IMG/VR virus record: IMGVR_UViG_2690316318_000024
DNA from: a virus
Lineage: Duplodnaviria; Heunggongvirae; Uroviricota; Caudoviricetes
Reading direction: 5' to 3' (one strand)
DNA: 9,273 bases
The notes beneath the pieces are model-generated. The model was not told the origin of the DNA. It saw only the letters and a list, made by a program, of their open reading frames with translations, and did not search any database. Positions 4,900 to 5,512 of the stretch are shown one piece after another; position 1 is the first letter of the stretch, and every line of letters begins with the position of its first letter. Made by a program: the position numbers and the translations under genes.

Positions 4900-5106
4900 A
4901 TGCACAAAACAGAACCAAAAATCGTCGCGCCCGGATACACAAATGAGGAAATTTACGAGTGGATGGCAAAGAAGCTGGCAGCTATAAACCAGCTTCGTGA
5001 AGTGCTGTCTTATCGACAGAAAACAATAGACTCCTTAAAAAAACTGGATCAGGAAATCACGGTTTTATCACAGGATGTTACTTTAGATATTGTGCAGACA
5101 AATTAG
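4900..5106 (+). CDS. Hypothetical small protein, 68 aa (first ORF of the pL-like operon; not N-like)
   Basis: ATG at 4900 preceded by GAGGAGG (4887-4893); the ORF track extends to TTG at 4885. Predicted helical/coiled-coil C-terminus, no arginine-rich motif. 3' end overlaps the convergent 144-aa gene by 29 nt. Confidence 0.6.
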   Translation: MHKTEPKIVAPGYTNEEIYEWMAKKLAAINQLREVLSYRQKTIDSLKKLDQEITVLSQDVTLDIVQTN

Positions 5107-5512
5107 GATCCCATTCATTTTCGTCAAAATCATCAAAGTGATGAATTTGTGATCTCCAGTCTCGATAATCTAAAAATTTCTGGGCGGTTACGCTTATTTT
5201 ATCAAGTGTGAGTTCATCCTGAATTGAAAGAAGAAGTTCATCAAATTTCATCTCATTAATCTGTTTTGGCATCCAGTGATGCTTCATCAGAATAAGGTGA
5301 ACCAGAGCCTTTTTCCCATTCAACTGATTATAGGGAGTGCCGAATTTCTTCCGGTGCTCATGTAAGACAAGGTCCAGAAGAGTAAGTAATGTTGCCCTTG
5401 ATTCAACTTTGCTTATTTCGACTGATGACACTACCCCACTGATTTCAATGCCCCGATACTTTCCAACATTTTCACAGTGGGATTTGTACAGCGTATAGAT
5501 ATTACCGGACAT
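5078..5512 (-). CDS. Hypothetical protein, 144 aa (AT-rich accessory gene, antisense to the early-left transcript)
   Basis: ORF track 5078..5512. ATG at 5512..5510 preceded by AGGAAA. No recognisable motif; acidic C-terminus (FDDFDENEWDPN). Confidence 0.6.
   Translation of the reverse strand: MSGNIYTLYKSHCENVGKYRGIEISGVVSSVEISKVESRATLLTLLDLVLHEHRKKFGTPYNQLNGKKALVHLILMKHHWMPKQINEMKFDELLLSIQDELTLDKISVTAQKFLDYRDWRSQIHHFDDFDENEWDPNLSAQYLK

Follow-up and report, generated by a model that had tools for sequence, protein, structure and literature searches.

Among the described systems closest to the locus reported here are the bor gene of phage lambda, the sieB genes of lambda and P22 together with the P22 gene esc, and the HK97 gene encoding gp15. 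These are variably present accessory genes of lower GC content, which have their own terminator and lie against, or independent of, the lytic operon. SieB, Bor and gp15 are envelope proteins. The product of esc, which is read from an internal start, is a phage-made antagonist that guards P22 from its own exclusion factor, SieB. A locus of comparable build is present in a 9,273-nucleotide (nt) stretch of phage DNA (class Caudoviricetes), the IMG/VR record IMGVR_UViG_2690316318_000024, which in its full length is called the window below. The window belongs to a lambdoid prophage of Escherichia coli, one of the SfV/SfIV-like kind, of which it covers the immunity and early region, and its plus strand corresponds to the 'leftward' direction. 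Between positions 4900 and 5512 it contains two convergent genes, a small gene and a large gene encoding proteins of 68 and 144 amino acids (aa), whose coding regions overlap at their 3′ ends. Together, the two genes make up a mobile accessory cassette that occurs in temperate phages of Enterobacterales. It shares with bor, sieB/esc and the gp15 gene the low GC content, the terminator of its own, the orientation and the variable presence. Unlike SieB, Bor and gp15, however, both of its products are soluble, and no sequence or Pfam relation to these proteins was found. The candidate antagonist is encoded by a separate convergent gene, whereas esc is an internal start. We propose that the cassette is a lysogen-expressed moron with a lytic-phase partner, switched by convergent transcription, and put the probability of this explanation as a whole somewhat below one half (about 0.45).

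The small gene is located on the plus strand at positions 4900–5106. Its ATG at 4900 lies inside the open reading frame (ORF) 4885–5106, which from this start encodes 68 aa plus the stop codon. The Shine–Dalgarno sequence GGAGG (4889–4893, plus strand) can be read 6 nt before the ATG. The large gene occupies positions 5078–5512 on the minus strand according to the ORF list, and the sequence AAAAGGAAAAGAA ahead of its ATG (5513–5526, minus strand) reads as its ribosome-binding region. The two coding regions overlap tail to tail by 29 nt (5078–5106, both strands). An earlier note on this DNA had given the same coordinates and the same overlap, and the ORF list agrees with it. Both genes are coding and under purifying selection, as is evident from the ratio of non-synonymous to synonymous polymorphism (pN/pS; 0.05–0.24 where measurable), the good ribosome-binding sites and the sizeable protein families. 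Outside the overlap, three clades give pN/pS values of 0.24, 0.05 and 0.16 for the small gene, the first of them applying to the window's gene. The corresponding values of the large gene are 0.15 and 0.13 in the two clades where it could be measured; its value in the E. coli clade is uninformative, because these loci were chosen for 100% identity to the large gene. The family of the small protein comprises 223 clusters and that of the large protein 65 representatives at 50% identity. The possibility that the small ORF is a mere non-coding antisense region was rejected on its pN/pS values.

The large protein is a full-length member of the NCBIfam family NF033230, 'ECs1072 family phage-associated protein'. 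It scores 157.8 bits against a cutoff of 70, with residues 4–144 aligned to profile positions 2–142 of 142. It also belongs to phrog_5286, and its RefSeq annotation is likewise ECs1072 family. NF033230 is a 'hypothetical equivalog' with no described function, and its description mentions neither a convergent small partner nor a constant antisense placement. The AlphaFold2 model of the large protein, built from a 47-sequence alignment, is confident and all-helical (predicted local distance difference test (pLDDT) 94.4, predicted template modelling score (pTM) 0.89). In the family, H72 and W134 are invariant and R54, L64, G66 and A69 nearly so. A profile search of the PDB sequences with the large protein gave no match, and its resemblance to the HD-domain superfamily (HD, HD-GYP, HDOD) is only a lead. 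The E. coli Sakai member ECs1072 gave a signal on arrays from uninduced cultures and was decreased 2.1-fold at a growth transition (PMC2241611); this signal weakly supports expression of the large gene in the lysogen.

The small protein matches phrog_1744 over its entire length (E = 2.6e-34, positions 1–68 of 68). Annotated YdfC matches the same PHROG at 1.9e-39, and the small protein shares about 40% identity over 66 residues with proteins annotated as YdfC (tblastn, E = 3e-9). No model for the YdfC/phrog_1744 family is present in Pfam or NCBIfam. The window's 68-aa protein, YdfC and the core of the proteins Sb50 and GP45 of more distant phages share the motif P-x4-P-G-[YM]-[TS]-x-E-[EQ]-L-x-x-W-[ML], followed by a long helix. 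The Sb50/GP45 type and the 68-aa/YdfC type are joined by a BLASTP match at E = 7e-5. An independent link between the two groups is provided by the small protein of Serratia, which matches both phrog_3501 (the type located between Q and holin genes) and phrog_1744 (the YdfC type). The AlphaFold2 model of the window's protein consists of an extended N-terminus of 14 residues and one long helix (residues 15–57; pLDDT 88.9). Its isoelectric point is 5.7, with nine lysine and arginine residues against ten aspartate and glutamate residues, and it has no arginine-rich stretch. The assignment as an antiterminator of the lambda N type was therefore rejected, in agreement with the earlier note; only the position of the gene, first after a pL-like promoter and boxA, fits such a role. 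The further statement of that note, that neither protein resembles a recognised family, does not hold, since the 144-aa protein belongs to NF033230 and the 68-aa protein to phrog_1744/YdfC. In the source records the names of both proteins are 'hypothetical' throughout.

YdfC is encoded in the dicBF operon of the Qin prophage of E. coli K-12, and its function is unknown (PMC5069750). It falls into the same PHROG as the window's small protein, and in both cases the small gene is part of a repressor-controlled early operon. The window's gene is the first one after the pL-like promoter; the YdfC homologues are located after dicA or cI. In the dicBF-type operons ydfC is not the first gene and has no convergent partner of the ECs1072 family, which distinguishes it from the small gene of the window.

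At least 12 lineages, in three operon contexts, show the convergent layout with overlapping 3′ ends, with the identity of the large protein going down to about 29%. The pair is found in Escherichia, Salmonella (ST64B), Klebsiella, Serratia, Photorhabdus, Providencia, Shimwellia and Superficieibacter. The overlap ranges from 29 to 95 nt across the lineages and from 53 to 95 nt in the distant pairs. In phage ST64B (locus L007) and Klebsiella phage KPP5665-2 (L008), an unannotated ORF of 144–148 aa, 28–29% identical to the window's large protein, overlaps the annotated small gene (sb50 and GP45, respectively) tail to tail by 71–95 nt. With overlaps of 71–89 nt, Serratia grimesii, two Photorhabdus species and a Providencia share this layout. 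Within a set of 171 loci, each locus that has the large gene and enough downstream sequence also has a convergent small gene, with the exception of L169. To avoid circularity, four loci were picked through the small protein alone. All four carry the large gene, which is intact and convergent in Shimwellia, Superficieibacter and E. coli M056 and truncated in Franconibacter. Contig L183, whose large protein is 38% identical to that of the window, repeats the window's arrangement directly behind an S24 repressor gene and a near-consensus pL. In prophage Sp4 of Sakai, ECs1072 lies antisense between cII-like and O-like genes and converges on a plus-strand ORF with a weak motif of the small family (14 bits); this locus probably counts as a member of the paired layout. 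Single-protein scans with the queries P0071 (viral contigs) and P0087 and P0091 (metagenome contigs) found nothing.

The pair is thus placed after pL (the window, L170, L182 and L183), between Q and the holin gene (L007, L008 and L173–L180) and, probably, between cII and O (Sakai). The Q–holin context includes three different Q families. Whatever the lineage, the large gene runs antisense to the lytic operon around it, be it the pL, the late or the pR operon, also where it occurs alone (L169 and L184–L187). The small gene, when present, is co-directional with the operon. The earlier note had described the 144-aa gene as antisense to the early-left transcript and the two genes as mutually antisense; this is the case in the window, and the layout recurs in the relatives.

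A few observations concern the pair in the relatives and its annotation. In the Q–holin pairs (L007 3209–3279, L008 3197–3291 and others), the overlap contains the palindrome TGGGATCCCA, which translates to W-D-P on either strand and encodes both the invariant W134-D-P of the large protein and a 'PWDP' in the tail of the small protein; Serratia has kept the large-protein copy and lost the small-protein copy. Locus L185 contains at 3654–3965 (plus strand) a shorter paralogue of the ECs1072 family (about 96 aa, E = 4.7e-6), in tandem with and just upstream of the full-length gene and without a small partner. The large ORF is missing from the records of ST64B and KPP5665-2, and the small gene from those of SfIV (L002) and Sakai (L181); these omissions are a practical annotation problem.

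The transcription signals around the pair were predicted, and the promoter and terminator sites in all lineages are consensus matches and not measurements. Ahead of the small gene, a consensus scan finds the promoter TTGACA-17-TAAATT (4697–4725, plus strand) with 10 of 12 matching positions and overlapping operator half-sites. The half-sites AAAGTTGT/ACAACTTT and the 12-mer ACATAAAGTTGT recur in the cro/cI intergenic region (2960–3045). Because the operator half-sites recur between cro and the repressor gene, the promoter can be labelled pL-like, that is, repressor-controlled. It is followed by the boxA sequence GCTCTTTAACAA (4843–4854, plus strand), which is the exact 12-mer of the rrn leader and occurs only once in the window on either strand; its putative function is taken from the known boxA consensus. 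Both elements had been named in the earlier note, as a pL-like promoter and a boxA-like element, and both were recovered. A weak terminator-like hairpin of six pairs, three of them GC (5181–5196, plus strand), lies inside the coding region of the large gene, 75 nt past the stop codon of the small gene. It was found by the consensus scan only, and its status is uncertain.

On the minus strand, the first canonical intrinsic terminator downstream of the large gene is a GC-rich hairpin followed by TTTTTGTTG (4822–4841; eight pairs, five of them GC). It forms the terminal hairpin when the RNA of the region 5085–4805 is folded. A minus-strand transcript ending there would run antisense through the full length of the 68-aa gene, its ribosome-binding site included. 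The hairpin belongs to a piece (4812–4875) which is common to the window and phage PhiR29_1 and absent from SfV, and which in PhiR29_1 directly follows a different cargo gene of the minus strand. The boxA adjoins this hairpin directly, and the order of the two elements (4822–4854) is that of rrn leaders and not the boxA-then-boxB order of lambda, and no N-like protein is encoded downstream.

In the pL type, no canonical terminator for the large gene is reached until past the 5′ end of the small gene; it is located at 4841–4822 in the window and is a bidirectional hairpin beyond pL in L183, which implies that the large-gene mRNA would be antisense to the entire small gene. In the Q–holin type, a GC-rich hairpin with a T-run is located 30–45 nt past the stop codon of the large gene, inside the EKAALEERL codons of the small gene. 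This embedded hairpin is paired in 94% of cells across 15 lineages and shows two compensatory changes (Serratia and Providencia); the observed level of covariation was reached in only 4 of 500 shuffles. As judged from these matches, the large gene has its own intrinsic terminator, either embedded in its partner or downstream of it. Klebsiella, Serratia, Photorhabdus and E. coli M056 have terminator-like sites on the lytic strand both ahead of the small gene and behind the cassette, and transcription of the small gene in these lineages should therefore require Q-modified polymerase. Sites behind the cassette are also present in ST64B and Superficieibacter.

The region upstream of the large gene shows some further features. 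A motif resembling TTGATTCGCCAAAA is common to three Q–holin loci at this position, and in E. albertii (L170) the 5′ leader of the large gene includes an additional repeat of 34 nt. In the window, a GC-rich structured element on the plus strand (5590–5813) matches the Rfam family STnc100 (RF02076) with 43.2 bits, against a gathering score of 47 (E = 7e-7). STnc100 and PasD are reported to form a related family of prophage small RNAs (bioRxiv 10.64898/2026.05.13.724894). Since the element lies directly upstream of the 5′ end of the large gene, the promoter region of that gene must overlap it on the opposite strand. A prophage small RNA downstream is a further likeness between the two operons, dicF in dicBF and the STnc100-like element in the window. 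The record of SfIV annotates a doubtful ORF, SfIVp35, across the STnc100-like region. No STnc100-like RNA was found beside the pair in four other lineages.

The mobility of the cassette is evident from the comparison with related phages. To either side of the pair, SfV and PhiR29_1 align collinearly with the window (blastn), but the slot in between holds other cargo in these two phages. The variable slot of the SfV-like phages spans positions 4812–5548, as defined by the borders at which homology is lost (4811/5549 for SfV and 4875/5528 for PhiR29_1; blastn against L001–L004). In SfV it contains orf33 and a terminator, and in PhiR29_1 an unrelated minus-strand gene of 242 aa. The window's pair is also found in SfIV, Kati and other phages. 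Both genes are thus gained or lost as one block among otherwise collinear SfV-like phages. The cassette is present in 410–424 of 5,426 complete E. coli genomes (about 8%), with the flanks present in 2,814, and it was found in prophages of at least nine genera; 84 related E. coli and Shigella loci likewise have the 29-nt overlap.

The GC content of the cassette is 0.39 (small gene 0.40, large gene 0.38), compared with 0.456 for the window and 0.52 for the replication side. The description of the genes as AT-rich relative to the phage backbone, made in the earlier note, is therefore correct, though the rest of the immunity region has a GC content of 0.397 and the cassette is no more AT-rich than its surroundings. 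Presence or absence among collinear phages, a lower GC content than the backbone and a terminator of its own are marks of a moron, and the cassette shows all three.

No recognisable function was found for the alternative cargos of SfV and PhiR29_1 with Pfam or PADLOC. An assignment of the 242-aa cargo of PhiR29_1 as SieB was rejected, as it has no Pfam match. At the right border of the slot (window 5528–5546, L001 5895–5911), the relatives differ by a duplication of about 19 nt that aligns twice. The Q–holin slot that holds the pair also carries HicA/HicB in Shimwellia (L177, 3706–4341) and a TerB-domain gene in Franconibacter (L178, 2382–2813). These neighbours are consistent with a hot spot for accessory genes.

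We propose that the large gene forms an autonomous unit directed against the lytic operon, here that of pL, and that, by analogy with the morons bor, sieB/esc and the gp15 gene, it is most likely expressed in the lysogen while the operon is silent. The small gene, which lies on the lytic strand behind a lytic promoter, would yield its product only upon derepression of pL or, in the relatives located after Q, only when Q lets RNA polymerase read through tR′. Convergence of the units and overlap of their transcripts would make the two expression states mutually exclusive. In the lysogen, the small gene would face the large-gene mRNA as an antisense RNA, and in the lytic phase strong antiterminated transcription would run into the large gene and generate RNA antisense to it. 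The small helical protein probably binds or counteracts the large protein, or shares its host target, which would allow the lytic cycle to escape the effect of the large protein. The likeliest activity of the latter may be intracellular exclusion or abortive infection, or another host-modulating function. That the pair is an undescribed and widespread two-component prophage system, made up of a lysogen effector with a fold of no known relative (acting inside the cell against incoming phages or on host physiology) and an antagonist encoded at the very start of the antiterminated lytic transcript, and flipped by convergent transcription with a partner-embedded terminator, is a more tentative proposal, possible but rather doubtful.

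Several results speak against the proposed lysogen–lytic switch. A scan for consensus sigma-70 promoters found none upstream of the large gene, either on the minus strand of the window or in the other lineages. In ST64B and Superficieibacter, the stretch from Q to the small gene yielded no terminator; in these two, the lysogen could express the small gene from a constitutive pR′. Models of known defence, toxin and antitoxin proteins match neither of the two proteins: in PADLOC-DB 2.0.0 the window proteins have no match at E ≤ 0.1 and the homologues of ST64B and Sakai none at E ≤ 0.01, and at E ≤ 0.1 Pfam reports no domain in either protein. Structure prediction, which the earlier note had suggested, gave a helical model of the small protein and a confident all-helical one of the large protein, with no convincing fold match for the latter. 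A Foldseek search of the large-protein model against PDB and BFVD returned nothing at E ≤ 0.001, and the activity assigned to it is thus a guess.

The pairing is also not obligatory, and this is the ground of the main rival explanation, according to which the neighbours have no functional relation. The small gene would then be an ordinary early or late phage gene of the YdfC-like kind with its own host target, the large gene an independent moron that tends to insert at similar sites, right behind a lytic promoter or terminator, and the overlap a matter of compaction. The large gene indeed occurs alone in L169, in L184 and L185 beside kilR and gam, and in L186 and L187 beside a holin gene. YdfC-type genes occur alone in the dicBF-type operons, with no remnants of the large gene beside the stand-alone ydfC, so that the small protein may have its own, unrelated function. 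In addition, the W-D-P tail of the Q–holin small proteins looks like a by-product of the codons for the large protein's W134-D-P (TGGGATCCCA), and this tail is absent from the window's version. An accidental association is, however, difficult to reconcile with the recurrence of the pair in three operons and at least 12 lineages at identities down to 29%, with the large gene at every one of the loci picked through the small protein, and with the exchange of the pair as one block in the SfV-like phages. Furthermore, the terminator of the large gene is built into the codons of the small gene and is kept there by compensatory changes. We regard this explanation as unlikely, and yet as the main rival. 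If it holds, all that is left of the finding is a pair of hypothetical phage genes within an already known cargo slot.

A toxin–antitoxin or addiction module, in which one protein poisons and the other protein or an antisense RNA neutralises and the prophage is thereby stabilised, is suggested by the two-gene, mobile, AT-rich build of the cassette, by the small size of its proteins and by the HicAB neighbour in Shimwellia. The convergent 3′-overlapping transcription resembles that of type I systems. The type I loci txpA/ratA, bsrG/SR4 and par fst/RNAII are convergent units whose transcripts pair at their 3′ ends and whose terminators lie near or inside the partner. In contrast to these loci, each partner of the cassette has a conserved soluble protein and not a short membrane peptide as its product, and each can be lost without the other. 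The small gene of E. albertii has a C-terminal frameshift. In about 10 of 74 Klebsiella-type loci the small gene is disrupted by nonsense mutation, frameshift or loss of the start codon beside an intact large gene; Franconibacter shows the reverse, and both genes occur singly. Neither gene is thus needed to survive the other. Both proteins are mildly acidic, with a highest 19-residue Kyte–Doolittle value of 0.84, which is not that of short hydrophobic peptides, and the known toxin and antitoxin models do not match them. A type II module was rejected, since the genes are convergent and not co-directional and either partner is found broken or absent with the other intact. A type I module was rejected as well, since both products are soluble and both are under purifying selection as proteins. 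SieB-type superinfection exclusion, another candidate, was rejected in the absence of a Pfam match and of a hydrophobic segment. Given the independent losses, a strict toxin–antitoxin relation is unlikely, and a module of this kind in the broader sense is improbable. The earlier note had interpreted the layout as lysogen-expressed cargo countered by lytic transcription, for instance a toxin or exclusion factor with its regulator. The architecture implied by this interpretation is supported by the gain and loss of the cassette, its recurrence across the lineages, the terminator of the large gene and the ECs1072 array signal; a strict relation of toxin and antidote is not, in view of the broken small genes and of the genes found alone. 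The cassette might also act mainly by transcription: the convergent large-gene transcript would slow down, or insulate against, leaky read-through from pL or pR′ and so stabilise lysogeny, with the proteins being secondary. Its location directly behind antiterminated lytic promoters, with terminators on both strands, would suit this role, as would the arrangement in L183, where the large-gene transcript would cross pL itself. Such a role leaves unexplained the purifying selection on both proteins and the invariant residues and well-defined fold of the large one, and SfV-type phages manage without the cassette. We consider it quite unlikely.

Both protein families have already been catalogued, without function. 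The pairing, the constant antisense placement and the embedded terminator appear to be new, and no description of them was found in the searched literature. ECs1072 is represented there by one array table only, and a search for the accessions, the PHROG identifiers and SfIVp36 gave nothing. In the SfIV paper, ORFs 35 and 36 are listed among the unique proteins whose function is not clear. If the proposed lysogen–lytic switch is correct, the cassette would be a new and common module among the lysogen-expressed functions of prophages. It would offer a clean natural case of convergent transcription as a toggle between lysogeny and lysis, with the terminator of the effector gene inside the reading frame of its partner. 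It would also provide a first functional handle on YdfC of K-12 and on a 17-kDa helical fold without a structural relative.

The remaining features of the window flank the cassette. To its right, yfdP/yfdQ/yfdR-like genes are followed by xis and int. To its left, the ORF list and the annotation place a cro-like gene at 2690–2938 (minus strand) and the S24/helix-turn-helix repressor (cI-like) gene at 3074–3760 (plus strand). The latter is met by a gene encoding a protein of 306 aa (3743–4663, minus strand; ORF list and Pfam), which has a C-terminal BRCT domain (Pfam, E = 1.4e-6) and repeated DGVIT-x-EE segments and shows a weak match to the PADLOC candidate PDC-S48 (E = 2.7e-7). This gene converges on the repressor gene with an 18-nt 3′ overlap and is divergent from pL; it represents a second cargo gene with a convergent overlap in the immunity region. 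On the replication side, 4.3 tandem copies of the 15-nt unit CAGATTTTGACGGGT are located at positions 1393–1456, inside a gene encoding a 260-aa protein that is named helix-turn-helix in RefSeq and primosomal protein in the SfIV record. These repeats are probably origin iterons, and they explain a spurious match to the Rfam family mir-5880.

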